Shown: piece by piece, positions 4,942 to 22,351 of the stretch
Layout: each line of letters starts with the position of its first letter
Numbering within the stretch: the stretch's first letter is position 1
Source: Candidatus Gastranaerophilales bacterium
GTDB taxonomy: Bacteria; Cyanobacteriota; Vampirovibrionia; Gastranaerophilales; Gastranaerophilaceae
Direction of reading: 5' to 3'
Length of the DNA: 64,000 bases
Assembly (NCBI GenBank): GCA_944325065.1
Contig: CALUYS010000001.1
Location: forward strand, 35,439-99,438
Position numbers and translations under genes: made by a program
The notes under the pieces: model-generated
Seen by the model: the letters and a program-made list of their open reading frames with translations, nothing else
Told to the model about the DNA's origin: nothing
Databases searched by the model: none

Positions 4942-5976
4942 ATGGAAAAACAATCTAAAGATATTAAAACTCCTTGCCTATCAATTATTTTACCTTGTTA
5001 TAATGTTGATAAATATATTGAAAAAGCATTATTATCAGTTATCAATCAGACACTTAAAAATATTGAAATAATTTGTATTAATGATGGTTCAAATGATAAA
5101 ACTTTTGACATTATTAATAAATTTGCATTAGAAGATAAACGTATTAAAGTGTTTAATCAAGAAAATCAAGGACAAGGTGTGGCTCGTAATAATGGTATAG
5201 CTTATGCAACAGCTCCATATATTGCTTTTATGGATCCTGATGATTGGGTTGCAATAGATATGTATGAAAATCTTTATAATCTCATTGTTCTCAATGATGC
5301 TGATTTTGTTGAATGTGATTTAAATAAATATTATGAAACGTCAGGTGAGTTAAAAAAGGTAAAATTTGATTATCCTGCAATGGAAAATAAAATATTTAAT
5401 TACAAAAGCGACAAAAATTACGTCTTTAAAGGAACTTCTTTGTCACCTTGCAATAAATTATTTAAAAAATCCTTTATAATCAGTAATAATATATATTTTT
5501 CAAGCAGAAAATTATCTGAAGATCAAATTTTTATTTTAAAGGCGAAAATATTTGCCAAAAAAATTATTTATACCCCTATTGCATATTATACATATAATAT
5601 ACATCCAAAGTCTTCACTGACTACACAGAAAGAAGAAAATATTCATTTTGAAAATATTATATATGAAATTAATCAATTTTTTAAATCACAAAATCTTTAT
5701 GATGAATTTAAAAAATATATTGATGAATCTATATTAAATATTGTTAGAGAACATTATACATTATGTCCTATATATTTAAGAAAGAAATTTTTAAAAAATG
5801 CTAAAAACGTACTTGGTAATGATTTGTTTAAAAAATTTAATAAAAATCGTAAAATTGAAAATAAAAATAAATTTATAGAAAATATATTTTCTTTAAAAAA
5901 TGAATATAAGTTTGGTGTAAAATATAAAAGAGTTACATTGTTGGGATTGAAATTTGAGTTTGTAATAAAAAAGTAG
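4942..5976 (+). CDS. GT2 family glycosyltransferase with C-terminal Lys-rich tag module
   Basis: LSIILPCYNVDKYIEKALLSVINQT...ICINDGSNDKT and DPDD are typical of the GT-A GT2 fold. The last 30 aa are IFSLKNEYKFGVKYKRVTLLGLKFEFVIKK. Confidence 0.85.
   Translation: MEKQSKDIKTPCLSIILPCYNVDKYIEKALLSVINQTLKNIEIICINDGSNDKTFDIINKFALEDKRIKVFNQENQGQGVARNNGIAYATAPYIAFMDPDDWVAIDMYENLYNLIVLNDADFVECDLNKYYETSGELKKVKFDYPAMENKIFNYKSDKNYVFKGTSLSPCNKLFKKSFIISNNIYFSSRKLSEDQIFILKAKIFAKKIIYTPIAYYTYNIHPKSSLTTQKEENIHFENIIYEINQFFKSQNLYDEFKKYIDESILNIVREHYTLCPIYLRKKFLKNAKNVLGNDLFKKFNKNRKIENKNKFIENIFSLKNEYKFGVKYKRVTLLGLKFEFVIKK
5884..5973 (+). other. Tag module copy 1 (C-terminal on GT2)
   Basis: IFSLKNEYKFGVKYKRVTLLGLKFEFVIKK. 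Confidence 0.8.
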
Positions 5977-5988
5977 GAAAGTTGAAAA

Positions 5989-6981
5989 ATGTTATTAATA
6001 ACTGGTGGAGCAGGGTATATAGGAAGTCATGCTGTAATTAATTTTTTAGAAGCAGGGTATGATATTTTGATTTTTGATAATCTTGAAGTTGGGCATATTG
6101 AAATAATCAACACACTAAAAAAAATAGGGAACGTCAAATTTGAAAAGGGTGATTTGAGAAATTTGGCTGATGTTGAAGAATTGTTTAGCAAATATAAAAT
6201 AGATGGTGTAATTCATTTTGCAGCACATGCCTTGGTTGGAGAAAGCATGGTAAAACCTGATAAATATTATGAAAATAATGTTGTTGGTACTTTAAATCTG
6301 CTTAACACAATGATTAAAAATGATGTAAAAAAAATTGTATTTTCATCAACTTGTGCAACTTATGGAGAACCAAATTATGTTCCAATAGATGAAAACCATC
6401 CTCAAAATCCAATAAATCCTTATGGAACTTCAAAACTTATGGTTGAAAAAATATTGGATGATTATGATAAAGCTTATGATTTAAAGTCAATAAAATTAAG
6501 ATATTTTAATGTTGTTGGAGCTGATAGCAAATGTCGTATTGGAGAATGGCACGATAATGAAACTCACTTGGTTCCTAACATATTAAAATCAGTTTTACAA
6601 GAATCAAAAGAATTTAAAATTTTTGGTAATGATTATAATACTAAAGATGGAACTTGTGTTCGTGATTATGTTAATGTGGAAGATTTAGCTTATGCTCATC
6701 GTTTAGCTTATGAATATTTGTTAAAGGAGAATAAATCAGATGTTTTTAATTTAGGGACACAAAATGGAGTAAGTGTTAAAGAAGTTTTCGAAACATGTCA
6801 AAAGGTTTTGAATAAAAAAATAAGATATAAAATTGAAAATAGAAGAACAGGAGACCCTGCAATATTATATGCTGATACTTCTAAAATTCGTCAAATATTG
6901 AATTGGAAACCAAAGCAAACTTTCGAACATAGTATCAAAACAGCTAGCAAATGGGAGCAAAAAAATGAGCAACCAAAATAA
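5989..6981 (+). CDS. galE: UDP-glucose 4-epimerase
   Basis: 330 aa. Contains ITGGAGYIGSH, STCATYGEP, YGTSKLMVE, RYFNVVGA, CVRDYVNVEDLA. Confidence 0.85.
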   Translation: MLLITGGAGYIGSHAVINFLEAGYDILIFDNLEVGHIEIINTLKKIGNVKFEKGDLRNLADVEELFSKYKIDGVIHFAAHALVGESMVKPDKYYENNVVGTLNLLNTMIKNDVKKIVFSSTCATYGEPNYVPIDENHPQNPINPYGTSKLMVEKILDDYDKAYDLKSIKLRYFNVVGADSKCRIGEWHDNETHLVPNILKSVLQESKEFKIFGNDYNTKDGTCVRDYVNVEDLAYAHRLAYEYLLKENKSDVFNLGTQNGVSVKEVFETCQKVLNKKIRYKIENRRTGDPAILYADTSKIRQILNWKPKQTFEHSIKTASKWEQKNEQPK

Positions 6982-8071
6982 AAATATAATTCCTGTTGTT
7001 TTTGCTTCGGATGATAATTATGTACCGTATTTGGCGGTTACAATAAAATCTTTGATAGAACATGTTTCAAATGAAAATTTTTATGAAATATTTATTCTTG
7101 AAAATAAAATATCTGAATATAATAAAAAAAACATTCAAAGTTTAAGTAAAATTGATAATGTAAAAATAGAGTTTATTAATGTTGCTGATTATTTAAATAA
7201 CCTTAAATCAGAAACTTTTTTTACTTCAGGTTATATAAATATTTCGTCTTATTTTCGCTGCTTTATTATTGATATTTTTAAAGATTATGATAAAATAATT
7301 TATCTTGATAGTGATATTATTATTCTAGAGGATATTGCAAATTTATATAATATAACAATTTCTAAAAATAAAGCACTTGGTGTTATTCGCGATATTGGTA
7401 TTATAAATATACTTAATAATAAATCAAGAGTTGATTTGTATAAATTTGAAAATTATTTAAAAAAAGATTTAAATCTTTCAAATCCTGCTGATTATTTTCA
7501 AGCTGGTGTTTTAGTAATGAATTTAAAAGAATTGTGTAAAATAAATTTAATAAGTTTGTGTTTTAAAAAAACAAAAGAAATAAAAACACCTTTTTATCAT
7601 GACCAATGTATTTTAAACTCTATATTTTATAATCAAGTTGAATTTCTTCCAATGAAATGGAATCTATTACCTTATTTATTGTATAATGATGACAATATGT
7701 ATTTACCTGATGATATTAAAAATAAATATTTTGAAATTATTGAAAAAAAAGAAGGTATTATACATTATGCAACTTATGAAAAACCTTGGCGATGTCCTGA
7801 TTTGCCTTTGGCTCAAATATGGTGGGAATATGCACGATTGAGTCCTTTTTATGAGGAAATAATTTACCGTAATGCAAAAGAATGGTCTAATATAACTTAT
7901 GAAGAAAAAAATTTACTTAAAAAAGAAGATTATTTTAAATTTAAATGTTTAAAATATAAATTTTTATACTTTTTATCCTTTGGCAAAAAACGTGTTTATT
8001 ATAAAGAAAAATTGAAATTGTATGAATATAATTTAAAAAGAATAGTAAAAATAAAAGCGAGGAAGATATAA
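6965..8071 (+). CDS. GT8 family glycosyltransferase
   Basis: IPVVFASDDNYVPYLAVTIKSL, the DxD motif in YLDSDIII, FQAGVLVMNL, HYATYEKPW. Confidence 0.8.
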   Translation: MSNQNKNIIPVVFASDDNYVPYLAVTIKSLIEHVSNENFYEIFILENKISEYNKKNIQSLSKIDNVKIEFINVADYLNNLKSETFFTSGYINISSYFRCFIIDIFKDYDKIIYLDSDIIILEDIANLYNITISKNKALGVIRDIGIINILNNKSRVDLYKFENYLKKDLNLSNPADYFQAGVLVMNLKELCKINLISLCFKKTKEIKTPFYHDQCILNSIFYNQVEFLPMKWNLLPYLLYNDDNMYLPDDIKNKYFEIIEKKEGIIHYATYEKPWRCPDLPLAQIWWEYARLSPFYEEIIYRNAKEWSNITYEEKNLLKKEDYFKFKCLKYKFLYFLSFGKKRVYYKEKLKLYEYNLKRIVKIKARKI

Positions 8072-11034
8072 TGTCAACTAATCCCAAGATATCTGTTATA
8101 ATGTCAAGTTATAATCGTACTCAATATATAAAAGAAGCAATTGAGTCAATATTAAATCAAACATATCAAGATTTTGAATTTATTATTATTGATGATTGTT
8201 CTAAAAAAGAAACTCAAGATGTTATTGAAAACTATGCACAGAATGATGAAAGAATAATTTTTTTGAAAAATGAATATAATATGGGTCAAGCCTTAACTCG
8301 AAATAGGGGACTTGAAATTGCAAAAGGTGAATATATTGCAATTTTGGATGATGATGATATATCTTTACCAACACGTTTTGAAAAACAGGTGGAATATATG
8401 GATAAAAACCCTGAGATTATACTTTCCGGAACTGATATCGAAACTTTTGGTGGTAATGAAATATCATCATCTTGGGTAGATTTATTTGACCCTGAAATTA
8501 TATCAGTTTTAATAAATTTTTATAATCCTTTTTGTGCTTCAACTTTAATGTTCAGAAATAATTTTATAAAAGAGCATAATATTAAATATGATAATAGTGT
8601 TTGTCATGTAGAAGACTATGATTTGTATAGGCAAATTCTTGTAGCAGGTGGAAAAATTTCTAATTTGCCTCAAGTGCTTGTAAAATATAGAGTTCATAAA
8701 CAAAGCGTGACTCAGAATAAACAAAGTCAGAAAATACAAATCCTTGCATCAGAAAAAGTTAAACAAAGGTTATTAAGTAGATTCTTTGACAATAAAACAG
8801 TAGAAAAAATTATTAATACTATAAAATCTTATCCTTTTTACAATGCTAATAATAAAAAGGATATTTATGAATATCTTATGCTTATGAAAAAAAATAATAG
8901 CAATAAAATTATTAACAATAATTCAATAGATAAAACAATTGAGTTTATATGTGGAAAATCTTCGATAATGAATATATTCTTTTCTTCTAATAATAATTAT
9001 TCTCAACATTTATGTGTATCTATTGCATCTATACTTATTAATTCTTTACCAATTGAAAATTTTAATTTTTATATTTTAGACGGAGGGATTAAAGATAAAA
9101 ATAAAGAAAAAATATTAAATTTGAAAAGAATTAAAAATTTTAATATTGAATTTATAAAAATTGACGATAAACTTTTCAAGGATTGTGATATTACTTCAGA
9201 ATGTATGCATATTTCTAAACAAACATATTATAGATATATAATTCCAAAATTGAAACCTCAAATAAAAAAATGTTTATATTTAGATTGTGATATTGTTGTT
9301 AATAATAGTTTAAATGAATTGTGGAATATAGATTTAGAAGATAATTATATTGCAGCAGTTGAAGATTTATCATTAATAACAAATGATGATGCAAAACGTC
9401 TTGAAATAAATCATTATTTTAATGCCGGTGTTCTGCTAATTAATAATGAACTTTGGATAAAAGATAATATTACGGAACTTTTATTCCAAAATACATTAAA
9501 AATAAAAGATAAAATTCGTTGGGTTGACCAATGTGTTTTAAATTATACATTTAAAGATAAAGTTTTATTTTTATCTCCGAAATATAATTTACAGCATAGT
9601 GCATATAAAGATACAAAATATAATATATATAGTAAAGACCAAATTGATTTTGTAAAAAAATTTCCTATAATTATTCATTATTCAGGTAGTGATAAACCTT
9701 GGAGTAAAAAATGTATTCATAGTTTATGGAAACAGTATTATAAATATTTAAAATATACTCCTTATAAAAAACAATATTGTACTTATAAATTAAAAAAAAT
9801 TTTAAAAAATATCTTAAGAAGTATTTTTTCAATCCAAAATATAGAATGTTATAAGCTGGTGAAATTTTTTGGTTTAAAATTTTATATTAAAAATAAACAG
9901 AAAGAATATATGTTAAAACTTGAAAATGATATAAAAAATGATATAAAAAATATTGAACATCTTATAAATGGAAATAAGATTTATATAGATGATATTGATA
10001 TTAAAATTAAGAAAAATATACTACAAAATAGTAGATTATGGGATGCTCAATGGTATTTAAAAACATACGGATATAGTTATTATAAAACGGAAGCTTTGAA
10101 TTATTATATTGAAACTGGGTGGAAGAAAAAAGAAAGTCCTTCAAAATATTTTAATACCGAATATTATCTTTTAAAATATGGTAATACTTTGAATAATGAA
10201 ATTCCTGTTATTCATTATTTAACAAAAGGTAAATATTGGTGTTATTATTTAGATAATAAGAACAATTATAAGTCAAAATTTGATGAACAAAATATAAAAA
10301 ATTATCTTGAATACAAAAATAATAGAAATGCTAAAGGTGTTATTTATACTTGTATTACGAATGATTATGATGATATATATGAAATAGAGACATATAAATA
10401 TGTTAATAAAGATTGGGATTATGTTTGTTTTACTGATAATCAAGAACATATAAAAAAGGGACAAATAGGTATTTGGCAGATAAGACCTTTGGCATATTGT
10501 GAATCTGATAACACTCGTAACAACAGGTGGCATAAAATACATCCTCATATTTTATTTCCTGAATATGAAAAAAGTATATATATTGATGCAAATATTAATA
10601 TTTTATCAAATAAATTATTTAATATAATCAATCAAAAAAATACTAATATTGTTCTACCTGAACATTTTAATACTTCTTGTATATATCAAGAACTTAATTG
10701 GGCTTTGGACTCTGGTATAGATAATTATAATATTGTGTTTAAACAATATGAACTTATAAAAAATTCTAATATGCCGAAAAATTATGGATTTACTGAAAAT
10801 AATCTTATTTATCGTAAACATAATGAAAAAAATGTTATTGATTTAATGGATGAATGGTGGTATATGGTATCAAATTATTCAAAACGTGATCAGTTATCAT
10901 TCGTATATTTATTATGGAAACGGCAAATTGATATAGAAGATATCACATTTAAAAATACAAGAATTGATGATGAAAATTTTTATGTATTTGACCATAAAAA
11001 GTTAAGGGAAAAAAGTATTGTTTGTATAAAATAA
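8071..11034 (+). CDS. Multidomain glycosyltransferase: GT2 - GT8 - internal tag module - DUF616/TOD1-like domain
   Basis: 987 aa. N-terminal ISVIMSSYNRTQYIKEAIESILNQT..IIIDDCS (GT2). Middle NIFFSSNNNYSQHLCVSIASIL..YLDCDIVV..HYSGSDKPW (GT8). Tag at 9823-9891. C-terminal GVIYTCITNDYDDI..WDYVCFTD..NRWHKIHPH..IYIDANI..RDQLSF (DUF616-like). Confidence 0.8.
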   Translation: MSTNPKISVIMSSYNRTQYIKEAIESILNQTYQDFEFIIIDDCSKKETQDVIENYAQNDERIIFLKNEYNMGQALTRNRGLEIAKGEYIAILDDDDISLPTRFEKQVEYMDKNPEIILSGTDIETFGGNEISSSWVDLFDPEIISVLINFYNPFCASTLMFRNNFIKEHNIKYDNSVCHVEDYDLYRQILVAGGKISNLPQVLVKYRVHKQSVTQNKQSQKIQILASEKVKQRLLSRFFDNKTVEKIINTIKSYPFYNANNKKDIYEYLMLMKKNNSNKIINNNSIDKTIEFICGKSSIMNIFFSSNNNYSQHLCVSIASILINSLPIENFNFYILDGGIKDKNKEKILNLKRIKNFNIEFIKIDDKLFKDCDITSECMHISKQTYYRYIIPKLKPQIKKCLYLDCDIVVNNSLNELWNIDLEDNYIAAVEDLSLITNDDAKRLEINHYFNAGVLLINNELWIKDNITELLFQNTLKIKDKIRWVDQCVLNYTFKDKVLFLSPKYNLQHSAYKDTKYNIYSKDQIDFVKKFPIIIHYSGSDKPWSKKCIHSLWKQYYKYLKYTPYKKQYCTYKLKKILKNILRSIFSIQNIECYKLVKFFGLKFYIKNKQKEYMLKLENDIKNDIKNIEHLINGNKIYIDDIDIKIKKNILQNSRLWDAQWYLKTYGYSYYKTEALNYYIETGWKKKESPSKYFNTEYYLLKYGNTLNNEIPVIHYLTKGKYWCYYLDNKNNYKSKFDEQNIKNYLEYKNNRNAKGVIYTCITNDYDDIYEIETYKYVNKDWDYVCFTDNQEHIKKGQIGIWQIRPLAYCESDNTRNNRWHKIHPHILFPEYEKSIYIDANINILSNKLFNIINQKNTNIVLPEHFNTSCIYQELNWALDSGIDNYNIVFKQYELIKNSNMPKNYGFTENNLIYRKHNEKNVIDLMDEWWYMVSNYSKRDQLSFVYLLWKRQIDIEDITFKNTRIDDENFYVFDHKKLREKSIVCIK
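9823..9891 (+). other. Tag module copy 2 (internal, shortened)
   Basis: IFSIQNIECYKLVKFFGLKFYIK, located between the GT8 and DUF616-like parts. Confidence 0.65.
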
Positions 11035-11063
11035 ATAATAATAAAAAATGATGGAGTCACGAA

Positions 11064-12017
11064 ATGAATTTATTAATAACAGGTGGAGCTGGATTTATTG
11101 GTTCTACATTAGCTGATAAATTATTAAAAATTGAAAGTAATAATATTATTGTCATTGACAATTTTAATGATTATTATTCTCCCAAGTTGAAAGAAAAAAA
11201 CATAAAACATAATTTAGATAATAAAAAATATAAATTGTATCGTGGTGATATATGCGATAAGAGTTTGTTATCAAGAATATTTAATGAAAGTAAAATTGAT
11301 ATTGTTGTTCATATAGCAGCCTCAGCTGGTGTAAGACCATCTATTGATAAACCTTTAGATTATATAAAAAATAATATAGAAGGTACGGTCAATATTCTTG
11401 AAGTGATGAAAAAAAATAACGTAAAAAAAATAGTATTTGCTTCATCAAGTTCAATATATGGCAATTGCAAGGAAAAAGTATTTTCTGAAGATTTAAAAGT
11501 TTCTGAGCCAATATCGCCTTATGCAGCTTCAAAATCAGCTTGTGAACAGTTTTTGTACACATATTCAAAATTATTTGATATTCAAGTTGTGGCATTAAGG
11601 TTTTTTACGGTTTTTGGACCAAGACAAAGGCCGGACTTGGCAATTCGTAAATTTATTGATTTAATTAAAGAAAATAAGTCAATACCAGTATATGGTGATG
11701 GTACAACAATCCGTGATTATACATATGTTGATGATATAGTTGATGGAATAATTGGTGCTATAAAATATAATGATACACAATATGAAATAATTAATCTTGG
11801 AGGCGGTGCTCCTGTTAGTTTAAATCAAATGATTGAAACAATTGAGAAAGCTTTAAATAAAAAAGCAAAAATAGAACGATTACCTATGCAACCAGGAGAT
11901 GTCAATAAAACAGTAGCTTCTATAACAAAAGCAAAAAAACTTTTAAATTATAATCCTAAAACAAGTTTTGAAAATGGTATAATAAAATTTATTGAATGGG
12001 AGAAAAATAATGAATAA
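11064..12017 (+). CDS. NAD-dependent epimerase, UDP-glucuronate 4-epimerase-like
   Basis: [66 protein letters not shown]. This pattern is typical of UDP-GlcA 4-epimerases. Confidence 0.7.
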   Translation: MNLLITGGAGFIGSTLADKLLKIESNNIIVIDNFNDYYSPKLKEKNIKHNLDNKKYKLYRGDICDKSLLSRIFNESKIDIVVHIAASAGVRPSIDKPLDYIKNNIEGTVNILEVMKKNNVKKIVFASSSSIYGNCKEKVFSEDLKVSEPISPYAASKSACEQFLYTYSKLFDIQVVALRFFTVFGPRQRPDLAIRKFIDLIKENKSIPVYGDGTTIRDYTYVDDIVDGIIGAIKYNDTQYEIINLGGGAPVSLNQMIETIEKALNKKAKIERLPMQPGDVNKTVASITKAKKLLNYNPKTSFENGIIKFIEWEKNNE

Positions 12018-13116
12018 CAATATAATTAGGATATGTATTTTACATCCTCAAGTTTCAAATGTTGATTGGATGTTTAGTTTTTTGAAAATTCCTAATGAAA
12101 AATATCATTTTGTGTGGGATGATAAAAATCCTGATTATATTATTGCATCAGAATGGGTATATTATGAATCAGAATTTTTTAACAAATTTTTATCATTACA
12201 AAAACCGAATGTTATAAATATTTTTTTTGCTGGTGAATGTCTTGAACCAGATTTAAATATTTTTGACTATGCTATAGTTTTTGATAAAAATTTAAAATAT
12301 GAAGACAGAGTTTCAAGAATCCCTACACTTCAATTTTTTGGTAAATATGTTAATGATTCTTTTTTTGAAACAGTTGAAAATCCAAAAGAGTTATTAAAAC
12401 ACAAAACAGGCTTCTGTAATTTTATATATTCAAATGGTAATGCACATCCCAATCGTGATAAATTATTTTATAAAATATCTGAATATAAAAAAGTTGATTC
12501 TTTAGGACCACACTTAAGAAATGTTGAAGTAAAAGAGCCATTAGTTCATTGGAGTGAAAAAAAACGTTATAAGTTTTCAATAGCTTGTGAAAATGCTTGT
12601 TATAAAGGATACACAAGTGAAAAAATAATAACAAGCTTTGCTGCAAATACAATACCCATTTATTGGGGAGATCCATTGGTTGAAAATTTTTTTAATCCGA
12701 AAGCTTTTATAAATGCTAATAATAAAAGTTTTGATGAAGTATTAAAAATTGTTCAAGAAATTGACAATAATGATCAGTTGTGGTGTAAAATAATAGCTGA
12801 ACCTCATATTTTAGATTGGCAAAAAGAAAATTTTATAAAAGAGAAAGAAGAATTTCAACAATTTTTATACAATATTTTTGATCAAGAAATTGAACAAGCA
12901 AAAAGAGTTGGACAAGGATATCATCCAACAAATTATCGTAAATGGTTTAGAACATTAACAACAAAGGATGTTTATGGAAATTATGAATGTATAATTAAAA
13001 AAAATAATTTTTTACAAAATGTATTTTCTGTAAGAAATTCATTTGAAGCAAATCAAAAAAGGAAAATAATAAGTTTATTTGGTATTAAATTTAAATTCAA
13101 GACGAGCAAGGTTTAA
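12010..13116 (+). CDS. GT10 family alpha-1,3/4-fucosyltransferase-like protein with C-terminal tag module
   Basis: CNFIYSNGNAHPNRDKLF and KFSIACENACYKGYTSEKI resemble the conserved GT10 FucT motifs. I prefer the ATG at 12010, which follows GGGAGA; the ORF track starts at TTG 11992. Confidence 0.65.
   Translation: MNNNIIRICILHPQVSNVDWMFSFLKIPNEKYHFVWDDKNPDYIIASEWVYYESEFFNKFLSLQKPNVINIFFAGECLEPDLNIFDYAIVFDKNLKYEDRVSRIPTLQFFGKYVNDSFFETVENPKELLKHKTGFCNFIYSNGNAHPNRDKLFYKISEYKKVDSLGPHLRNVEVKEPLVHWSEKKRYKFSIACENACYKGYTSEKIITSFAANTIPIYWGDPLVENFFNPKAFINANNKSFDEVLKIVQEIDNNDQLWCKIIAEPHILDWQKENFIKEKEEFQQFLYNIFDQEIEQAKRVGQGYHPTNYRKWFRTLTTKDVYGNYECIIKKNNFLQNVFSVRNSFEANQKRKIISLFGIKFKFKTSKV
13021..13113 (+). 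other. Tag module copy 3 (C-terminal on GT10)
   Basis: VFSVRNSFEANQKRKIISLFGIKFKFKTSKV. Confidence 0.75.
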
Positions 13117-14229: not shown

Positions 14230-15315
14230 ATGAAAATTTTAGAAAAAATAATATCTATTAAAAATCAATATAATAATGGTTATAAATACAAAAAATTGAA
14301 TATTTTAGGAATAAAAATTAAACATAAATCTGGAGAGCAATTTTTTAAAGAAAAAAGAAAAATTGATAAAATAAGAAATAATTTCACAATTGATATTAAT
14401 AAATTTTCTAAAAAATATAAAACTAATAAAATATATCCATTTTTAGTAAACCATATTTCCCATATTGATGAAATAAACGAGTTTTTATACAGTAAATTAT
14501 CTTATGTTGATAAAAAAACTTTTATAGAATTTCTTTTTAAACGATATGCACAAGTTGAAGTTATAGCAGACAATGAAAAACAAAAACTTGATAAAATATT
14601 TAAACAAATTGATAAATTACTATTAGCTAGAAAAAATATTTATGAACCAGTTGAGATAGAAAGTGATATTTTTAATTGTGGCAAAAAGGTAATTAAATTT
14701 ATAACAGGTAAAGAAAATGTTGAGCAAATTGGTGAAATATGTGCTTGTTATAATATAGTTCATTCATTTATTTTAAACGAATATTTTTTAGATGGTTTTT
14801 TGCCTGAAAATGGTAAGGTAATATTAGATTGTGGAGCAGCTATGGGGGATACTGCAATTGTATTTTCAAAACAATATCCTGATTCAAAAATTTATAGTTT
14901 TGAATGTATTGGAAAAAATATTGAGTTATTAAATAAAAATTTAGAATTAAATAATATATCTAACGTTATTCCAATAAAGACTTTTTTAGCGTCAAAAACT
15001 GGTAAAATTAATATTGATAGTATAGAATATGATTCAATATCAATCGATGATTATGTTAAGAAAAATAATATTAATAATATTGGACTTATTAAGTTTGATA
15101 TTGAAGGTGCTGAGTTAGAAGCATTAAATGGAGGCATAAATACTATTAAAGAACACAAACCACTATTATACATTCCTATATATCATTTGGAAACTGATAT
15201 ATATGAAATCCCTAAATTTATATATAATTTAGGTTTAAGAACCAAGTTCGGATTAAAATGGGTTGAAAAAAGAATTTGGGGAGTTGATTGCGTTTTATTT
15301 TGTAAGTTTGTGTAA
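14230..15315 (+). CDS. FkbM family methyltransferase with N-terminal tag module
   Basis: LDCGAAMGDTAIVF and IKFDIEGAELEAL are FkbM signatures. The tag lies at aa 7-33. Confidence 0.75.
   Translation: MKILEKIISIKNQYNNGYKYKKLNILGIKIKHKSGEQFFKEKRKIDKIRNNFTIDINKFSKKYKTNKIYPFLVNHISHIDEINEFLYSKLSYVDKKTFIEFLFKRYAQVEVIADNEKQKLDKIFKQIDKLLLARKNIYEPVEIESDIFNCGKKVIKFITGKENVEQIGEICACYNIVHSFILNEYFLDGFLPENGKVILDCGAAMGDTAIVFSKQYPDSKIYSFECIGKNIELLNKNLELNNISNVIPIKTFLASKTGKINIDSIEYDSISIDDYVKKNNINNIGLIKFDIEGAELEALNGGINTIKEHKPLLYIPIYHLETDIYEIPKFIYNLGLRTKFGLKWVEKRIWGVDCVLFCKFV
14248..14328 (+). other. Tag module copy 4 (N-terminal on FkbM MTase)
   Basis: IISIKNQYNNGYKYKKLNILGIKIKHK. Confidence 0.75.
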
Positions 15316-15323: not shown

Positions 15324-16148
15324 TTAATTTTTACAAACCGCAATAAGTTTTTCATATGAAGAACATATCCCAACTTCAACTATTTCTGTTTTTAAAGGAT
15401 TGGGTAAAGAATATAGTTTTACATCTTTATAATACATTTTTAAAATAAAGTAAAGCTCGCCTGCATCAAATTCTTGAGTATGATATTTATAAGGAGGTGC
15501 TACAATTTCTTCTTTTTTATAATATCGATCTCTGTTTGGTGTTGCAATAATTGCATAATCTGATAATTGAACAAATTTATCTAAAAATGACTTATAATCT
15601 TTTATATGTTCAATAACGTCTATTGAAATGGCAAGATCAAATTTTTGAGGATATTTTTCAAGAATTTCTTCTATACTATAATCACAATAAGTTACATTTT
15701 GTATGTTTCTATTTTCAATTACCCACCTTGTTGAGCTTTGATCCATTTCAGAAGCTAAAAAATTAATATTAGGATAAATTTTTGCGTTATAATATTCAAA
15801 AGTTCCAACACCACTTCCAATATTTACAATATTTTTTACACCATTTAAAAAATTCATACCTATAACTTTATTACAGTTTATCATATCTTCCCATTCAAAA
15901 ACACCACCATTTTTGACTCTTTCTAGTTTTATTTCTATATTGCCACATCCTAATTCATTTTCATTACCTTTATATTTATATCCGCATTGTGAAATTAAAT
16001 TACTATTATATATACTTGATGGTGATAAGATTTTTGTATAATTATATTTTTGTTTAAACTTTATATTTAAGCCTAAAATATTTATGATTTTATGTTTTTT
16101 ATTATTCTTATATTCATTTTTAATAGAAAATACATTTTTTAAATTCAT
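15324..16148 (-). CDS. Class I SAM-dependent methyltransferase with N-terminal tag module
   Basis: VNIGSGVGTFE (motif I) and DLAISIDVIEHI. The tag lies at aa 6-32. Confidence 0.7.
   Translation of the reverse strand: MNLKNVFSIKNEYKNNKKHKIINILGLNIKFKQKYNYTKILSPSSIYNSNLISQCGYKYKGNENELGCGNIEIKLERVKNGGVFEWEDMINCNKVIGMNFLNGVKNIVNIGSGVGTFEYYNAKIYPNINFLASEMDQSSTRWVIENRNIQNVTYCDYSIEEILEKYPQKFDLAISIDVIEHIKDYKSFLDKFVQLSDYAIIATPNRDRYYKKEEIVAPPYKYHTQEFDAGELYFILKMYYKDVKLYSLPNPLKTEIVEVGICSSYEKLIAVCKN
16053..16133 (-). other. Tag module copy 5 (N-terminal on class I MTase)
   Basis: VFSIKNEYKNNKKHKIINILGLNIKFK. Confidence 0.85.
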
Positions 16149-16169: not shown

Positions 16170-18047
16170 TTAATTAAAGCTACAATTTTTACATTCTTTA
16201 TTAATTCGTCCATGTTTTTTATGAAAATTTCTAATTGATTCATAAATTCCATTTGTATAAGTATTTAATATTTTTGAATTTTTTATATTTTTCTTTATAA
16301 TGCCTTCTGCATCAAAACAACAAAGAGCAAAATCTCCATTACTCAATATGCTTATTGTTCTATATAAAATTTCACATGGTTTTTTTAATAAATTATTTTT
16401 TTGCGGACAGTTATTTTTTTTCTCTTTATTTACCCATTGACCCAATTTAATAATACGAATATTTGCAAAATTCTCAAATTTATTTTTAAAATTTGAAACC
16501 ATATCTTTATTGTCAATGTGTGAAACGATTGATACATTTATTTTTATGTCACTTTTTAGCTTTTGTTTTAATTTAAATAATAAATTAAGATTATTCAGTG
16601 TGAGATTCAAATCTAGTCCCATTATTTTATTATATTCAACTTCATCAAGAGAATTGATACTTACTGTTATTTCATCAAGTTTGGCTTCTAATATTTCATA
16701 AAGTAATTTTTCATTTGCAAGTTGTAAATTTGTTGTAAATCTTATTGGTATTTGAGGAAAATTTTCTTTTAATTTTTTAATTCGACTGACAATTTTTTTA
16801 TCAAGCAAAGGTTCACCATTTAAATGTAGAATAAATTGCGTTACTTTGATTTTTTCATCTTTAATTCTTTTTATTATTAAATTAAAAATTTCATCAGTCA
16901 TAAAATTTTTTTTTCTTACAAGATTTGGATTTGGACAAAATTTACATTTTGCATTACAAAAACTTGTTGTTTCAATTTCTATTTCAAAATTCAATTTGTT
17001 TGTTTTTAGTAAATAATCTTTAGATGAATTTAATGAAAGCAAATTTTGACTTTTCGTTTTTATTAAATTTAAAAAATTATTTTTCTTATTTTCTATTTTT
17101 AATAATTTTCCGAGTTCATAATCCCACTCGATTGGTTCAAAAGCTTCCATGCCATTGCCTGGATAAAAAGTGACTTCACTAAAATAAATTTGATTGTTTA
17201 CATTATAAAAATCAACACGTGCAAATTGAAAATCTTTACCTAGAATCTCGGCAAGTTCTACTAATTTATTTAAATTTTGAGGTTTTTTTATACCGTTTGG
17301 TGAATTTTTATATAGTCTTTCAAAAGGTAATTTATTCCAATTTATATCATAAAAATCTACATATAAATTATTTTTTCGATTTGAAACAACAAATAAATTT
17401 TTAACTTTTCCATTGTAGCACATAAATTTATAGTCATATAAATCATTATTTAGTTGTTGTATATATTTTTCGCATATTATTTTGGGTTTAATATTTTTAT
17501 AAGACCATTCAAAAGAATAAAAATAGTGATTTGAACGCGGCTCAAGCCACTCATTTAATTTAGTCTTTGTTTCTTCTATATTTAATTGTGACTTATCTTT
17601 AACAATAATATTTTGTCCACTACCCCAATTAACTTTTAGTACAAATTGATTGGGTAAAGCACTAAAATCAATTTCATCAGGATTATTGTAAACTCCAATT
17701 AATGGTATAAGGTATTCTTCTCCTATTTTTTCTTTAATATAATTTCGAACAAGATATTTATCCGCACACTTAGTCAATAGTGGATCTTCATTATACAATT
17801 TTAGCCATTGCATTTTTTCATTAAATGTTTTTGGGCTATCAATATTTGGTTTATAGCCAACCTGCTCTTCAAATTGTTTTTCAACTATTAATTTTTTTTC
17901 TTTTATTGAAATATCTGGACTATATCTTTTATTTAGAGCTTTTTCATATTTTGAAAATAATCTCAATTTGAGTTTTAATCCTAAAATATTTATAACTTTA
18001 TGTTTTTTGTTATTTTGATATTCATTTTTTATTGATAGTAATTTCAT
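16170..18047 (-). CDS. Fusion protein: N-terminal tag, TupA-like ATP-grasp domain, then radical SAM (SPASM-like Cys-rich C-terminus)
   Basis: TFNEKMQWLKLYNEDPLLTKCADKYLVRNYI..FVLKVNWGSGQNIIVKDK (ATPgrasp_TupA-like). ETTSFCNAKCKFCPN (CX3CX2C). C-terminal CEILY..CCFDAEG..CKNC. Likely start is ATG 18047, after GGGAGA; the ORF track starts at TTG 18059. Confidence 0.75.
   Translation of the reverse strand: MKLLSIKNEYQNNKKHKVINILGLKLKLRLFSKYEKALNKRYSPDISIKEKKLIVEKQFEEQVGYKPNIDSPKTFNEKMQWLKLYNEDPLLTKCADKYLVRNYIKEKIGEEYLIPLIGVYNNPDEIDFSALPNQFVLKVNWGSGQNIIVKDKSQLNIEETKTKLNEWLEPRSNHYFYSFEWSYKNIKPKIICEKYIQQLNNDLYDYKFMCYNGKVKNLFVVSNRKNNLYVDFYDINWNKLPFERLYKNSPNGIKKPQNLNKLVELAEILGKDFQFARVDFYNVNNQIYFSEVTFYPGNGMEAFEPIEWDYELGKLLKIENKKNNFLNLIKTKSQNLLSLNSSKDYLLKTNKLNFEIEIETTSFCNAKCKFCPNPNLVRKKNFMTDEIFNLIIKRIKDEKIKVTQFILHLNGEPLLDKKIVSRIKKLKENFPQIPIRFTTNLQLANEKLLYEILEAKLDEITVSINSLDEVEYNKIMGLDLNLTLNNLNLLFKLKQKLKSDIKINVSIVSHIDNKDMVSNFKNKFENFANIRIIKLGQWVNKEKKNNCPQKNNLLKKPCEILYRTISILSNGDFALCCFDAEGIIKKNIKNSKILNTYTNGIYESIRNFHKKHGRINKECKNCSFN
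17961..18041 (-). other. Tag module copy 6 (N-terminal on ATP-grasp/radical SAM fusion)
   Basis: LLSIKNEYQNNKKHKVINILGLKLKLR. Confidence 0.85.
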
Positions 18048-18065
18048 TTTATCTCCCAATATTTT

Positions 18066-18218: not shown

Positions 18219-18233
18219 GAATGGTTTTTTAAA

Positions 18234-19208
18234 ATGGGAGAACATAAAAATAATATAAAAATCGCTTTTTGTTTTGATAATAATTTGATGAAACAAATTT
18301 GTGTTACGGTTGCAAGTTTGCTTGATGCTAGTAAAAATAGTTGTTCTCATTACGATATTTATTGTATATGTTCCAATGGAGCAGAAAAAGTTGAAAATAA
18401 GTTAAAAAAAATTGTTAAAAAACGCGATAAATTTTCAAATATATTCCTATATCCAGTAGAAAATAAATATGCAAATGGTTATGAAATTAGAAAAATTACA
18501 AGTGGTGCATATTTAAGACTTCAATTGCATAATATTTTATCAAATCTTGATAAAATTATTTATTGCGATGTAGACATTTTATTTAAAAATAATTTGCAAG
18601 AAATTTGGGATATTCCTATTGATCACAACTATTTTATGGGGGTAAAAGGAGCTAATAATTTAAGTCATATTTGGAATGAAAATCTTATAAAATTTAATTA
18701 TTGGAATAAATTTGACAAAAATACTTATATTAATAGTGGGGTAGTTGTTATGAATTTACAAAAAATTCGTGATGACAATCTTGAAAAACAATGGGAAAAC
18801 ATGGTAAATGATGCTTATTTTTACGTGGATCAAGACATTATTAATATTGTTTGTAAAAATAAAATAGGATTTTTGCCTTTAAAATATAACATTCCTGCAT
18901 ATTTAGATAATAATACTCTTTTAAATTATGAAAAAGAAAATATATATGAAAAATCTTTCATTGAAGATGCAATAAATAATCCATCAGTTATTCACTATGC
19001 AGGAGAAAAACCTTGGGATAATCCAAATATATTAAATAGTTATTATTGGATTAATTATGTAAAAAGTCAAAAGGATTTGAAAAAAATGTTTAAAACAAAA
19101 CAAAAAATAAAATTATTTAGCATAAATAATGAATATTCAAATAATAAAAAATACAAAGTTATTACTTTATTTGGAATAAAAATAAAACTACGATGTAAGA
19201 AAGGGTAA
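18234..19208 (+). CDS. GT8 family glycosyltransferase with C-terminal tag module
   Basis: IKIAFCFDNNLMKQICVTVASLL, YCDVDILF (DxD), NSGVVVMNL, HYAGEKPW. Confidence 0.8.
   Translation: MGEHKNNIKIAFCFDNNLMKQICVTVASLLDASKNSCSHYDIYCICSNGAEKVENKLKKIVKKRDKFSNIFLYPVENKYANGYEIRKITSGAYLRLQLHNILSNLDKIIYCDVDILFKNNLQEIWDIPIDHNYFMGVKGANNLSHIWNENLIKFNYWNKFDKNTYINSGVVVMNLQKIRDDNLEKQWENMVNDAYFYVDQDIINIVCKNKIGFLPLKYNIPAYLDNNTLLNYEKENIYEKSFIEDAINNPSVIHYAGEKPWDNPNILNSYYWINYVKSQKDLKKMFKTKQKIKLFSINNEYSNNKKYKVITLFGIKIKLRCKKG
19113..19205 (+). other. Tag module copy 7 (C-terminal on GT8)
   Basis: LFSINNEYSNNKKYKVITLFGIKIKLRCKKG. Confidence 0.85.
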
Positions 19209-19210
19209 AA

Positions 19211-20530
19211 ATGTTAAATTATAAAAAAATATTACTTATAAATCCTTATATCAAACTAGATCGAGAAAATCCAATCGCTATACTTGATATGGCTCCATAT
19301 TTTAGAAAATGTGGTATAGAAGTTGATGTATGTAATTTTCCCGATCTACCTGAGTTTAAAGATTATGATATGATAGGTATAAGTTGTATTTCAAGTGAAG
19401 GCGGATATATTTTTGAGCAACTTAAAGTTATTCGCGAACATTTTCGAGGAAAGAAAATAGTTATTGGTGGAAAATGGTCAACAACAATGACAGAGGAAGA
19501 AGCTTTAAAATTGCAGACTTTAAATATTGAAGTTGAAACAGGCAAAGGAGAACTTGTTTATACAAATGATAAAGTTATAAATTTTGAAAAGTATCCTTCA
19601 TGGGATAAAAATGATTTTGAAATTCTGTGTGCCAATAATATAATGATGACATCTCGTGGTTGTCCTTTTCATTGTAATTTTTGCAATAATACCGAAGAAA
19701 AAGTAAGTTATTTTACTGCTAAACGAACTGTAGATAATCTTGAACTTATTTTGAGTAAAAATAATGATGTATACTTTGTAGATGATATTTTTGTTACAAA
19801 TTATGAACATGCAAAAGCAATTTATGATGAATGTAAACGACGTAAAATTAAAATTGAAAACCATAATAAATTTTTTGTACATCTAAATACGGTTAATGAT
19901 AAAACTATTAAAATAATCAAATTGTTTAAACCCAAAATGGTTAATGTTGGCATTGAGTCAGGTAATGATTCAATGCTAAAAAAGATGAATAAAAAAACAA
20001 GTGTTGAAAAAATAAGAAAAAATGTAAAAACTCTTTCAAAATATACAAATGTCCATGGTTTATGGATGGTCGGTTATCCTTATGAAACAATTGATACACT
20101 TAAAAATTCTTGGAATTTAATGAAGGAACTTGCTCCATACATACATTCAAATTGGATAAGTCATTATATTCCCTTGTATGCTACAGTTGGATATCATATG
20201 GCAATGGAAGAAGGTGGTAAATTTAATCAAGGTATTGATAATCGTCATGTTGCTTATATACCTAAAGGTTTAACTCAAGACATTTTAATTGAATATAGAA
20301 CAAAAATGATGCAATTTAATAATATTTTATTTAAAAGACAAAATATATACAAATATTACTTTTATAAAATTGTTTCAAAAATTTCAATAGGTAAATTAAG
20401 AAAAAAAGTTAAGGCAAAGTATAAAACATTAAAGTCGCAATTCTCTCCCCCCCCCCCGATAAAATCCAATATTTTAGATTTAATTTATATTCTAAGATTA
20501 TCTTGTTTTTTAAATGTTTTTTATATTTGA
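19211..20530 (+). CDS. B12-binding-domain radical SAM enzyme (class B-like)
   Basis: The N-terminal ~130 aa have a Rossmann-like B12-binding layout, followed by MTSRGCPFHCNFCNN (CX3CX2C) and VGIESGND. The 3' end contains a C11 tract. Confidence 0.7.
   Translation: MLNYKKILLINPYIKLDRENPIAILDMAPYFRKCGIEVDVCNFPDLPEFKDYDMIGISCISSEGGYIFEQLKVIREHFRGKKIVIGGKWSTTMTEEEALKLQTLNIEVETGKGELVYTNDKVINFEKYPSWDKNDFEILCANNIMMTSRGCPFHCNFCNNTEEKVSYFTAKRTVDNLELILSKNNDVYFVDDIFVTNYEHAKAIYDECKRRKIKIENHNKFFVHLNTVNDKTIKIIKLFKPKMVNVGIESGNDSMLKKMNKKTSVEKIRKNVKTLSKYTNVHGLWMVGYPYETIDTLKNSWNLMKELAPYIHSNWISHYIPLYATVGYHMAMEEGGKFNQGIDNRHVAYIPKGLTQDILIEYRTKMMQFNNILFKRQNIYKYYFYKIVSKISIGKLRKKVKAKYKTLKSQFSPPPPIKSNILDLIYILRLSCFLNVFYI
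20447..20457 (+). repeat. Homopolymeric C11 tract inside the 3' end of the B12-radical SAM gene
   Basis: Counted directly: ttctct + 11 C + gat. It encodes SPPPP in the called frame. Confidence 0.95.
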
Positions 20531-20548
20531 GAAATGAGGTAATTTAAG

Positions 20549-21454
20549 ATGAAATTTATTTCTTTTAAAAACGAGTATTTAAACGATAAAAAGTATAAAG
20601 TTTTAACTTTATTTGGAATAAAATTTAGATTTAAGTCAAAAAAACAAAATCAAATAAACAATTGTAATTATTTGCAAACATTACCCCGCTTGGAGATTCA
20701 TGTATGTGATAAATGCAATTTAAATTGTCGTGGTTGTACACATTATTGTAATGTTGCACAAGAAGATAGATTTGTTGATATAAGTAATTTTGAAAAGGAT
20801 ATAAAAGAAGTTGCTAAAAAACTTAATTTTTATGAAATCAAACTTTTGGGTGGTGAACCTTTGCTACATCCTAATTTAATTGAATTCTTTAGATTAACTC
20901 GTCAAGCATTTCCAACAAGTAAAATTATTTTAACAACGAACTTAATTTTGCTTGATACGATGAAAGAAAATTTTTGGGAAGCTATGAAGAAACACAATAT
21001 TGTTTTTCAATTGACAAAATATCCTCCAATGAATGAAAAATTTGTTCACTATTTGGATTTAATTGCTTCTCATAATATTATTATCGACAATATTCATGTT
21101 GCAAATGAGTTTTGGTTGTTTAAAAATCCGAATGGAGATTCAAATTCTCAAGAAGTTTATAAACAATGTCCTGAAGCTTATTGCCGACAACTTCGTGACG
21201 GAAGATTATATATTTGCCCTGATGCTTGTTATATGGATTATTATAATAAATACTTTAGTAAAAATATTCCAGTTGACAAAGGAATAGATGTTTATAAACA
21301 TTCAAGTGAGGAAATTTATAATTATTTGACAACACCGAAAGAAACTTGTAAATTTTGTTTTGCAAAGGACAAATTTAAATACGTACCTTGGGAAAAATCA
21401 CAAAAAAAATATGATGAATGGGATGGAGAAGTGGCAAATGAAGTTATTGTTTAA
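20549..21454 (+). CDS. Radical SAM enzyme with N-terminal tag module
   Basis: LEIHVCDKCNLNCRGCTHY (CX3CX2C), LLGGEPLLHP. The tag lies at aa 3-29. Confidence 0.7.
   Translation: MKFISFKNEYLNDKKYKVLTLFGIKFRFKSKKQNQINNCNYLQTLPRLEIHVCDKCNLNCRGCTHYCNVAQEDRFVDISNFEKDIKEVAKKLNFYEIKLLGGEPLLHPNLIEFFRLTRQAFPTSKIILTTNLILLDTMKENFWEAMKKHNIVFQLTKYPPMNEKFVHYLDLIASHNIIIDNIHVANEFWLFKNPNGDSNSQEVYKQCPEAYCRQLRDGRLYICPDACYMDYYNKYFSKNIPVDKGIDVYKHSSEEIYNYLTTPKETCKFCFAKDKFKYVPWEKSQKKYDEWDGEVANEVIV
20555..20635 (+). other. Tag module copy 8 (N-terminal on radical SAM)
   Basis: FISFKNEYLNDKKYKVLTLFGIKFRFK. Confidence 0.85.
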
Positions 21455-21490
21455 GTTTAAGCTTATTAGATAATAATGAAGAGGTATAAA

Positions 21491-22351
21491 ATGAATACAA
21501 TAAATAAAAATGGAATATCAGAAGTAACGACGTCACAATTTGGTGAGGATATTATTGTTAATTACTTAATAAAATTATTAAAAAACAACAATATTATTAA
21601 TGATATGACATATATTGATATTGGAGCTTGTGATCCTGTTAGAAATAATAATACAATTAGATTTTATGAACAAAATTTAAATACAAATATGATGTTGAAA
21701 AGTGTTTTAATTGAAGCAAATCCTTATCAATATGAAAGATGTAAAAAAAATCGTCCTAATGATATAGTTCTTAATGCAATAATTGTTGATAAAAAAAATG
21801 ATAATAAAAAAATACCATTTTATGTATTTGCGAATGAATCTGGTTTGAATACAATGTCAAAAATTCAAGCTGAAAGTATATTAAAAGAATTACCTAATGT
21901 ATTTACTCATTATGATACTGTTATGGTTGATACAATAACGATAAATGAAATAATAGACAAATATTTTAATAATAAACCACCAGTTTTTATAGATCTAGAT
22001 ATCGAAGGAATAGAGTTAAAAATATTAAAATCTTTTAATTTTAAAAAATCCAAACCTTTGATATGGTGTATTGAAACATCTGAATTAATTACTGACTTTG
22101 AAGTTGGGAAAAAAGAGAATGACATAGTAAGTTTTATGAAAAGTAAAGGCTATGAGGTATATGCTGATACTTATTTAAATACTATTTTTATAGATAAAAA
22201 TATTTTAAAAAAACTTGTCCGCAAGCATAGTATGAAAAATAGTTGTATAAATATAGAAAAGATATTTTCTATAAAAAATAAATATTCAAATAATAAAAAA
22301 CATAAAATTTTGACTATTTTTGGTGTAAAATTTAAGATAAGATGTAAATAG
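21491..22351 (+). CDS. FkbM family methyltransferase with C-terminal tag module
   Basis: YIDIGACDPV and FIDLDIEGIELKIL. I prefer the ATG at 21491, after GAAGAGG; the ORF track starts at 21476. Confidence 0.7.
   Translation: MNTINKNGISEVTTSQFGEDIIVNYLIKLLKNNNIINDMTYIDIGACDPVRNNNTIRFYEQNLNTNMMLKSVLIEANPYQYERCKKNRPNDIVLNAIIVDKKNDNKKIPFYVFANESGLNTMSKIQAESILKELPNVFTHYDTVMVDTITINEIIDKYFNNKPPVFIDLDIEGIELKILKSFNFKKSKPLIWCIETSELITDFEVGKKENDIVSFMKSKGYEVYADTYLNTIFIDKNILKKLVRKHSMKNSCINIEKIFSIKNKYSNNKKHKILTIFGVKFKIRCK
22262..22348 (+). other. Tag module copy 9 (C-terminal on FkbM MTase)
   Basis: IFSIKNKYSNNKKHKILTIFGVKFKIRCK. Confidence 0.85.

Follow-up and report, generated by a model that had tools for sequence, protein, structure and literature searches.

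The 64-kb window analyzed here (the whole stretch of 64,000 nucleotides at positions 35,439 to 99,438 of contig CALUYS010000001.1 from a Candidatus Gastranaerophilales bacterium; ~25% GC) contains a glycan-biosynthesis locus of 17 genes (4942-25610, delineated with Pfam and NCBIfam scans) in which nine enzymes carry the same short, lysine-rich peptide, hereafter the tag. The tag is a genuine, portable module that is subject to selection at the peptide level and lies outside the catalytic fold of its hosts. With about half of our confidence, we interpret it as a peripheral membrane-targeting module that would keep otherwise soluble enzymes close to a lipid-linked glycan. The nine copies were noticed in the initial annotation of this sequence; the translations at these positions are identical to the peptides quoted there, and the split between four N-terminal, four C-terminal and one internal copy is correct. 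They are listed below, where the first bit score, if given, is that obtained with a hidden Markov model (HMM) of all nine copies and the second one is the leave-one-out score.

5884-5964, plus strand: tag copy 1, IFSLKNEYKFGVKYKRVTLLGLKFEFV, at the C-terminus of a GT2 glycosyltransferase (gene 4942-5976), the Pfam GT2 domain of which stops at residue 178; 47.8 bits, leave-one-out 36.1 bits (shuffle maximum, 15.5).
9823-9891, plus strand: tag copy 2, IFSIQNIECYKLVKFFGLKFYIK, a short-loop variant inside a 987-aa protein (gene 8071-11034), placed after the GT8 domain and before the third one, with a loop that is four residues shorter.
13021-13101, plus strand: tag copy 3, VFSVRNSFEANQKRKIISLFGIKFKFK, at the C-terminus of a GT10 fucosyltransferase-like protein (open reading frame (ORF) 11992-13116), the Pfam FucT_N and GT10 domains of which stop at residue 266; 46.9 and 33.1 bits.
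14248-14328, plus strand: tag copy 4, IISIKNQYNNGYKYKKLNILGIKIKHK, at the N-terminus of an FkbM-family methyltransferase (gene 14230-15315; FkbM domain, residues 197-335); 40.9 and 33.1 bits.
16053-16133, minus strand: tag copy 5, VFSIKNEYKNNKKHKIINILGLNIKFK, at the N-terminus of a class I S-adenosylmethionine (SAM) methyltransferase (gene 15324-16148; methyltransferase domain, residues 103-210); 46.5 and 46.3 bits.
17961-18041, minus strand: tag copy 6, LLSIKNEYQNNKKHKVINILGLKLKLR, at the N-terminus of a fusion of a TupA-like ATP-grasp domain with a radical SAM/SPASM domain (ORF 16170-18059); 47.9 and 50.4 bits.
19113-19193, plus strand: tag copy 7, LFSINNEYSNNKKYKVITLFGIKIKLR, at the C-terminus of a GT8 glycosyltransferase (gene 18234-19208); 50.9 and 52.7 bits.
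20555-20635, plus strand: tag copy 8, FISFKNEYLNDKKYKVLTLFGIKFRFK, at the N-terminus of a radical SAM protein (gene 20549-21454), the radical SAM domain of which starts at residue 52; 47.9 and 42.5 bits.
22262-22342, plus strand: tag copy 9, IFSIKNKYSNNKKHKILTIFGVKFKIR, at the C-terminus of a second FkbM methyltransferase (gene 21476-22351; FkbM domain, residues 48-227); 48.8 and 50.5 bits.

The nine copies score between 29 and 51 bits with the HMM that was built from them, whereas the next best match in the six-frame translation of the window reaches 8.8 bits. A leave-one-out scan of the window finds eight copies again at 25-45 bits and, when scored directly, eight copies reach 33-53 bits compared to at most 17.5 bits for composition-matched shuffles (2000 per tag), so that a low-complexity artefact, which the initial annotation had proposed to check with precisely such controls, is ruled out for eight copies. 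Tag copy 2 scores 8.0 bits under the window-only leave-one-out model, which is not significant (shuffle maximum, 9.7), but 20.2 bits under a family-wide HMM built on 201 database instances of the tag, against a background maximum of 9.3 in the window; like the internal tags in other proteins, it is located at a domain junction. Pairwise comparisons of the copies show 30-70% amino-acid identity and 52-79% nucleotide identity, and synonymous differences are frequent even at conserved residues (TCT/TCA/AGC for Ser, TTA/CTA/TTG for Leu, AGA/CGA/AGG for Arg). These observations indicate that selection acts on the peptide and rule out a DNA repeat or a recombination cassette.

A HMMER search of 1.84 billion cluster representatives identifies at least 931 proteins with the tag at E<=0.001 and at least 33 at E<=1e-10; the search was exhaustive and, for a profile of 27 residues, these counts are lower bounds. 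Word-indexed searches are unsuited to this motif: a tag with its flanks retrieved 12 short proteins, and a four-tag query yielded 2 matches. In the retrieved set of 156 proteins with 201 tag instances, the family consensus is I-F-S-[IV]-K-N-x(2-9)-K-[HYR]-K-[VI]-[IVL]-T-[ILV]-[LF]-G-[ILF]-K-[IFL]-K, with F2, S3, N6 and K23 conserved at 97% each, G29 at 95% and K31 at 89%, and without a conserved cysteine. The independence of position that was proposed from the window extends to these 156 proteins, in which tags occupy N-termini, C-termini and domain junctions and also occur in tandem. Among the retrieved proteins of 200 aa or longer, 14 tags are N-terminal, 41 C-terminal and 82 internal, the usual layout of the latter being [enzyme]-tag-[enzyme]-tag; tandem tags, with a period of ~41 residues, are present in some proteins, one of which contains four in a row.

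The hosts are remarkably uniform in function and diverse in family. A Pfam analysis of 92 tagged hosts identifies GT2 (44), GT8 (16), RgpF (5) and FkbM (5), followed by DUF4422, polysaccharide pyruvyl transferase, GT1/GT4 and radical SAM (3 each), TupA ATP-grasp, Gly_transf_sug and Caps_synth (2 each), and single cases of GT-D, Stealth, LicD, GT92 and GT11. No family is common to most of these 92 hosts, GT2 being the commonest; altogether, the hosts cover more than 20 glycan-enzyme families, and the top 25 families are all glycan-building or glycan-modifying. Membrane-spanning segments are lacking in 95 of the 96 tagged proteins of 200 aa or longer, such that the tag is limited to glycan enzymes without membrane-spanning segments. 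The single tagged protein with such segments, P0112 (499 aa), consists of the N-terminal part of a CLC chloride channel followed by the last ~90 residues of a GT8 protein with its tag and reflects either misassembly or a genuine fusion by deletion; an association of the tag with an integral-membrane channel was rejected, the tagged C-terminal part being the GT8 fragment.

The tag apparently has neither a name nor a published description. In the window hosts, no Pfam or NCBIfam model (Pfam-A 2025 and NCBIfam 20.0 were used throughout) extends onto the tag, and the isolated tags match no family in these libraries at E<=10, in agreement with the initial annotation, in which this segment was not assigned to any named domain family. 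Two different tag profiles match no chain in the PDB at E<=10, tblastn of the tags against plasmids gives no match, full-text literature searches with tag sequence strings found no paper, and a search of the literature on Gastranaerophilales with glycosyltransferase found nothing relevant. In one retrieved protein, P0013, the four-tag array (residues ~425-590) shows a sub-threshold similarity to DUF3098 in two stretches (24.1 bits, with a cut-off of 25) that is probably compositional and at chance level.

The structure of the window GT8 protein was predicted with AlphaFold2 (AF2) from an 85-row alignment of GT8 homologs, tagged homologs and tag fragments in which the tag columns were checked; the mean predicted local distance difference test score (pLDDT) of this model is 94.5 (the model from the single sequence, with a pLDDT of 35, was not used). 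Past an 8-residue linker of lower confidence, the tag is predicted to form three antiparallel strands, 295-302, 305-312 and 315-320, with mean pLDDT values of 77, 92 and 89 in the successive 10-residue blocks that span it (291-320). A Foldseek search with this model detects GT8 structures (WbbM and LgtC), and the alignment, ~286 columns long in the case of LgtC, is confined to the catalytic domain. Hence the tag is an appendage and not a core strand of the GT8 fold. Together with the Pfam and NCBIfam domains, which end short of the tag, this result bears out the proposal that the module is separate from the catalytic domains.

The spacing between the conserved Asn and Gly points in the same direction as the model. 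Among 215 tags (from the window and loci L005-L124), 208 have a spacing of 10, 12, 14 or 16 residues (77, 62, 65 and 4 tags, respectively) and 7 have an odd spacing, so that insertions and deletions come in pairs, as the lengthening or shortening of a hairpin demands. The 14-residue class includes eight of the nine window tags, and most other genomes mix classes. The hydrophobic moment (muH) of the tags is 0.6-1.6 at 180 degrees compared to 0.1-0.5 at 100 degrees, which indicates beta rather than helical periodicity, and the net charge is +3 to +8. Thus, the tag is predicted to be a self-contained module of ~23-29 residues that folds as a three-stranded antiparallel meander: strand 1 (x-F-S-[IV]-K-N...) would lead into a variable hairpin tip, strand 2 (K-[HY]-K-[VI]-[IV]-T-[IL]-[LF]) would follow, and a tight turn at the conserved Gly would connect it to strand 3 ([IL]-K-[IF]-K-[FL]-K). 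In the register that we deduced ourselves from the limits of the predicted strands, one face would be purely hydrophobic (F2, I4, I25, I27, I30, I32, F34) and flanked by the conserved N6-K23 pair, and the opposite face would display the cross-strand ladders S3/T26/K31, K5/V24/K33 and H22/K35. The cationic beta-hairpin with an Asn/Lys turn envisaged in the initial annotation is accordingly retained with respect to its beta structure and amphipathicity, but AF2 predicts a three-stranded meander instead of two strands, and the supposed turn for the most part lengthens the first hairpin.

Within the locus, the distribution of the tag follows function incompletely. The tagged glycosyltransferases are a GT2 protein, a fusion of GT2, GT8 and TOD1/MUCI70 domains, a GT10 protein with the FucT N-domain, and a GT8 protein; the other tagged hosts are the two FkbM methyltransferases, the class I methyltransferase, the fusion of TupA-like ATP-grasp with radical SAM/SPASM, and the radical SAM protein. 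These hosts represent seven Pfam families and about five fold classes, namely GT-A (GT2, GT8), GT-B (GT10), class I methyltransferase (FkbM, Methyltransf_23), ATP-grasp and radical SAM, so that the earlier count of at least six unrelated folds was slightly overstated. The rest of the locus encodes three untagged putative glycan-acting enzymes and five untagged nucleotide-sugar enzymes:

6965-8071: untagged GT8 protein with a cationic C-terminal tail, net charge +12 over 40 residues.
19211-20530: untagged B12-radical SAM protein, tail with a charge of +5 over 40 residues and a hydrophobic end.
23314-24288: untagged Methyltransf_24 protein, C-terminal tail with a charge of +8 over 40 residues.
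5989-6981, 11064-12017, 13143-14216, 22367-23299 and 24285-25610: untagged nucleotide-sugar enzymes, namely three short-chain dehydrogenase/reductase (SDR) family epimerases/dehydratases, UXS and UGD.

As noticed initially, none of the five nucleotide-sugar enzymes is tagged. The broader idea that the tag marks enzymes acting on the growing glycan holds in this respect and falls short in another, given that the tag is also missing from the GT8 protein, the B12-radical SAM protein and the methyltransferase. The C-termini of these three proteins had been considered to be weaker look-alikes of the tag; they score negatively with both HMMs and are not copies. The tagged termini in the locus carry a net charge of +6 to +11 per 40 residues, compared to -5 to +4 for the termini of the nucleotide-sugar enzymes (n=5), and the locus encodes just one membrane-spanning segment, which is weak and lies at the C-terminal end of the B12-radical SAM protein.

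What could such a tag do on soluble enzymes? In the reading to which we assign about an even chance, the tag, shuffled to either terminus or to the domain junctions of soluble enzymes involved in making or decorating a lipid-linked glycan, would keep them on the cytoplasmic side of the inner membrane, beside the anionic lipid-linked acceptor, and would thus do the same job as the cationic amphipathic helices on GT8 and GT10 enzymes of other bacteria. [quoted passage not shown] The closest catalytic homologs of the window GT8 protein, which come from Lachnospiraceae and show ~45% identity, have no tag and instead, in the same position, have the cationic tail GPTxWERxxRKxKKxxSKEKL, with a muH of 0.45 at 100 degrees versus 0.1 at 180 degrees, i.e., a helical one. 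A tail of this type ((Y)HGPTxWERxxRKxKKxxSKEKL) is conserved in P0167-P0275, the Lachnospiraceae and Clostridia GT8 homologs of 18234-19208.

Several lines of indirect evidence favor membrane targeting. The soluble hosts belong to the enzyme classes that need access to a lipid-linked acceptor; the peptides combine apparent beta amphipathicity with a net charge of +3 to +8; an amphipathic helix seems to take the place of the tag in untagged GT8 relatives; and, within the locus, the tagged termini are cationic, and cationic or hydrophobic tails of other kinds are present on the untagged glycan-acting enzymes. By analogy, the known anchors of GT8 and GT10 enzymes and the known lipid-binding beta-hairpins also speak for this reading: cationic amphipathic beta-hairpins, such as those of anti-lipopolysaccharide (LPS) factor, tachyplesin and arenicin, bind anionic lipids and lipid A (PMC10672452).

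Comparison with known systems shows both likeness and difference. The helical anchors of LgtC and the Helicobacter fucosyltransferases (FucT), as well as the membrane-targeting sequences of MinD and FtsA, resemble the tag in being short, terminal, cationic and amphipathic segments of soluble enzymes; LgtC and FucT share with tagged GT8 and GT10 enzymes the C-terminal position and hosts that act on a lipid-linked acceptor, and, as in the LgtC/FucT/MinD type of anchor, the tag sits on proteins without membrane-spanning segments. The tag differs from them in having beta-strand and not helical periodicity (in a direct comparison, the muH of the tag is 0.08-0.14 at 100 degrees and 0.6-0.74 at 180 degrees, the opposite of the Lachnospiraceae GT8 tails); in being one homologous motif across more than 20 enzyme families, in contrast to the family-specific tails of LgtC and FucT; and in using N-termini, C-termini and domain junctions alike, with tandem repeats possible. 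The loop of anti-LPS factor, tachyplesin, polyphemusin and arenicin provide a structural parallel, an antiparallel hairpin of alternating hydrophobic and basic residues, as in the IKIKFK stretch of the tag. Their ligands are anionic lipids and the phosphates of lipid A, and some of them form dimers on membranes (PMC10672452). Unlike the tag, they are host-defence peptides that are secreted and stabilized by disulfides; the tag lacks a conserved cysteine, is predicted to have three strands, is cytoplasmic and covalently attached to enzymes, and shows no sequence relationship to these peptides. No signal-peptide-like segment was detected in the tagged hosts. The choline-binding and cell-wall-binding repeats (CW_binding_1) are targeting modules on enzymes, as proposed for the tag, built of beta-hairpins (~20 residues per repeat) that form tandem arrays, but these repeats are extracellular, aromatic-rich and always arranged in long arrays, whereas the tag is usually single, cytoplasmic and without a Pfam match. 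A C-terminal sorting signal (LPXTG, PEP-CTERM or GlyGly-CTERM) was considered and excluded, given that four of the nine window tags are N-terminal and many tags elsewhere are internal, and that the tag contains no membrane-spanning helix, contrary to the architecture of sorting signals, which are strictly C-terminal and have such a helix and a basic cluster after the motif.

Several observations weigh against membrane targeting. Binding of the tag to membranes or anionic lipids is itself inferred. Conservation of the polar residues at the level seen for S3, N6 and K23 (97%, the same as for F2, with G29 at 95%) exceeds what generic membrane affinity would require and hints at a specific fold or partner; in the predicted sheet, most lysines would lie opposite the hydrophobic face, so that both faces would not be on the bilayer together; and the hydrophobic face may be either exposed or packed on the GT8 domain. 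Tandem tags and the rare tag-only mini-ORFs suit pairing of tags with each other at least equally well, and tags of one genome resemble each other slightly more than expected, with 46% sharing a loop length compared to 30% under permutation. A tentative alternative, then, is that the tag serves docking or oligomerization: the hydrophobic faces would pack as a beta-sandwich, or strands would be augmented edge to edge, and differently tagged enzymes would form a single multi-enzyme glycan assembly line. A sheet with seven exposed large hydrophobic residues could hardly be monomeric in water, and conserved packing of the tag on more than 20 unrelated host folds would be impossible. The identity-level conservation of F2, S3, N6, K23 and G29, the recurrence of tandem tags (period of ~41 residues, up to four), a 43-aa tag-only ORF that overlaps, through ATGA, the end of a GT2-GT2 gene with a terminal tag, the modest excess similarity of tags inside a genome, and the presence of nine tagged enzymes in one locus are all compatible with docking. 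Nevertheless, tandem tags are found in merely 6 of 202 ORFs and tags in small frames, that is, free-standing tags, in 4 of 206 in an unbiased genome sample; the within-genome similarity is weak and could reflect paralogy (strong co-evolution of tags within genomes was rejected for this reason); and the amphipathic helices that replace the tag in orthologs point to membrane binding. Nonribosomal peptide synthetase and polyketide synthase (NRPS/PKS) docking domains are short terminal peptides, some of them beta-hairpins, that are portable between unrelated catalytic modules and are proposed to order the enzymes of a pathway partly by beta-strand augmentation. They come as complementary N- and C-terminal pairs that fix the order of modules, whereas the tag is a single motif at both termini (N- and C-terminal tags match one HMM with similar scores), without a complementary partner class. 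We consider it possible, although doubtful, that the tags constitute a docking code of this kind, in which they would pair with each other, with some scaffold, or with the anionic lipid-linked acceptor to gather enzymes of the GT-A, GT-B, methyltransferase, ATP-grasp and radical SAM classes in a single complex for glycan assembly; such a code would be more than a membrane anchor, the glycan counterpart of the NRPS/PKS docking domains, and would have evolved and expanded mainly in gut Melainabacteria. Docking is compatible with electrostatic binding of the cationic outer faces to the membrane, and the two roles are not mutually exclusive.

An improbable further alternative is that the tag is an address label for a lineage-specific receptor encoded elsewhere, such as a membrane scaffold or exporter, or else binds the Und-PP (undecaprenyl diphosphate)-glycan or the lipid A-core through its Ser/Thr/Lys face. 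The enrichment in one lineage (67 of the 110 assemblies among the matches listed, as detailed below), the conserved hydroxyl/lysine ladder that, judging from the derived register and the conservation, would be suited to phosphate binding, the location of one tag-only ORF immediately upstream of an ABC (ATP-binding cassette) exporter gene, and the binding of lipid A phosphates by cationic beta-hairpins (PMC10672452) could all be explained in this way. No receptor candidate was identified, however, either in the window, which contains no exporter or scaffold gene, or in related loci; the tag is also present in gut Alphaproteobacteria and in Muribaculaceae, Treponema, Endomicrobium and Clostridia metagenome-assembled genomes (MAGs), with which the receptor would have to travel; and the lineage enrichment, counted among the matches listed, comes from a DNA pattern that favors AT-rich genomes. 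Finally, the peptide could be non-functional and stem either from a coincidence of composition, in a proteome rich in Lys, Ile and Asn, or from a repeat in the DNA at the borders of genes; the 25% GC content, with K, I, N and F plentiful, and the location of copies at gene ends might be adduced for this. This explanation is extremely unlikely in view of the gap between shuffled (at most 17.5 bits) and observed (33-53 bits) scores, the six-frame window background of at most 9 bits, the many synonymous differences at a nucleotide identity of merely 52-79%, the presence of the tag in 931 independent protein clusters, and loop lengths that nearly always vary by two-residue steps.

To sample the taxonomic spread, one genome per GTDB species was scanned with a degenerate DNA pattern that fits one of the nine window copies and is biased to TTT and AT-rich codons, so that the resulting counts, at least 120 loci in at least 110 assemblies, are a sample and not a census. 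Among the matches listed, 116 of 120 loci contain at least one HMM-confirmed tag, with up to six per 8 kb, and 67 of 110 assemblies are labeled Gastranaerophilales, Melainabacteria, 'Cyanobacteria UBA', Vampirovibrio or Adamsella; the rest of these matches include eight gut Alphaproteobacteria MAGs and a few each from Muribaculaceae, Bacteroides, Treponema, Endomicrobium, Clostridia, Bacilli and Lacinutrix. In this biased sample, the tag is apparently enriched in the uncultured gut lineage Gastranaerophilales/Melainabacteria. A protein identical to the window GT8 is encoded on human-gut metagenome contigs. The low GC content of the window and other genes in it, for an SLH-domain protein and a pseudopilin-like protein, are likewise compatible with a presumed origin in Gastranaerophilales.

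The routes by which soluble glycan enzymes reach a membrane-bound acceptor and one another are poorly understood, and each known anchor is a tail specific to its family; the single short module described here is common to more than 20 enzyme families. What is apparently new is this portable beta-type tag, a candidate for localization or co-localization that is shared by many enzyme families, and its most probable function extends a familiar principle. If targeting or docking is its true role, the tag would allow enzymes that act on the growing lipid-linked glycan to be told apart by sequence, in uncultured gut lineages, from those that act on precursors in solution; it could be built into engineered glycan pathways as a minimal tag of the beta type for membrane attachment or assembly; and its deletion or swapping would give a direct test for a physical organization of bacterial glycan assembly lines. 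The tag merits an entry as a profile family because at least 931 protein clusters carry it without annotation.

Several further features of tagged proteins and of the locus deserve mention. In P0017, P0026 and P0043, the tandem tags precede long stretches of heptads, rich in Gln, Asn and Lys and coiled-coil-like, that recall the coiled-coil rulers of O-antigen chain terminators. Tag-only mini-ORFs are present at positions 4001-4114 of L125-L127, 3274-3405 of L128 and 4001-4132 of L129. P0002 (37 aa) has its own AGGAGG site and lies between the gene for a PS_pyruv_trans/TPP protein and an ABC exporter gene, P0003 (a 61-aa ORF) is its counterpart in another strain, and P0005 (43 aa) has an ATGA overlap with the stop codon of a GT2-GT2 gene that itself ends in a tag. 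Both P0002 and P0005 are conserved across samples; such free-standing tags could be trans-acting or remnants of decay.

In the 987-aa protein (8071-11034), residues ~765-965 match the glycosyltransferase-like TOD1/MUCI70 domain (PF04765, 37.4 bits with a cut-off of 21.4), so that its layout is GT2, GT8, tag and TOD1/MUCI70. The mechanically assigned TTG starts of ORF 16170-18059 (minus strand) and ORF 11992-13116 (plus strand) are probably too far upstream. The probable start of the GT10 gene is the ATG at 12010, and the host of tag copy 6 likely starts at the ATG at 18047 (MKLLSIKNEY...), given that the same gene is called as 625 aa on metagenome contig L001; a gene call is also available from P0001. 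The locus encodes three radical SAM enzymes (one of them B12-dependent), four methyltransferases and a TupA-like ATP-grasp protein, and the Pfam and NCBIfam scans detect no flippase, polymerase, ABC exporter or initiating phosphoglycosyltransferase in the window. This set of modifying enzymes, along with the lack of export genes in the window, suggests that the glycan is heavily modified and that its export genes are located elsewhere. The genes that flank the locus (26274-27407, minus strand; 28158-29324, plus strand; 4029-4652, minus strand) encode an Asn-rich hypothetical protein of 377 aa that has a single membrane-spanning segment and matches no Pfam family, a protein with an SLH domain, and a pseudopilin-like protein, again without a Pfam match, that has a prepilin-type N-terminus.

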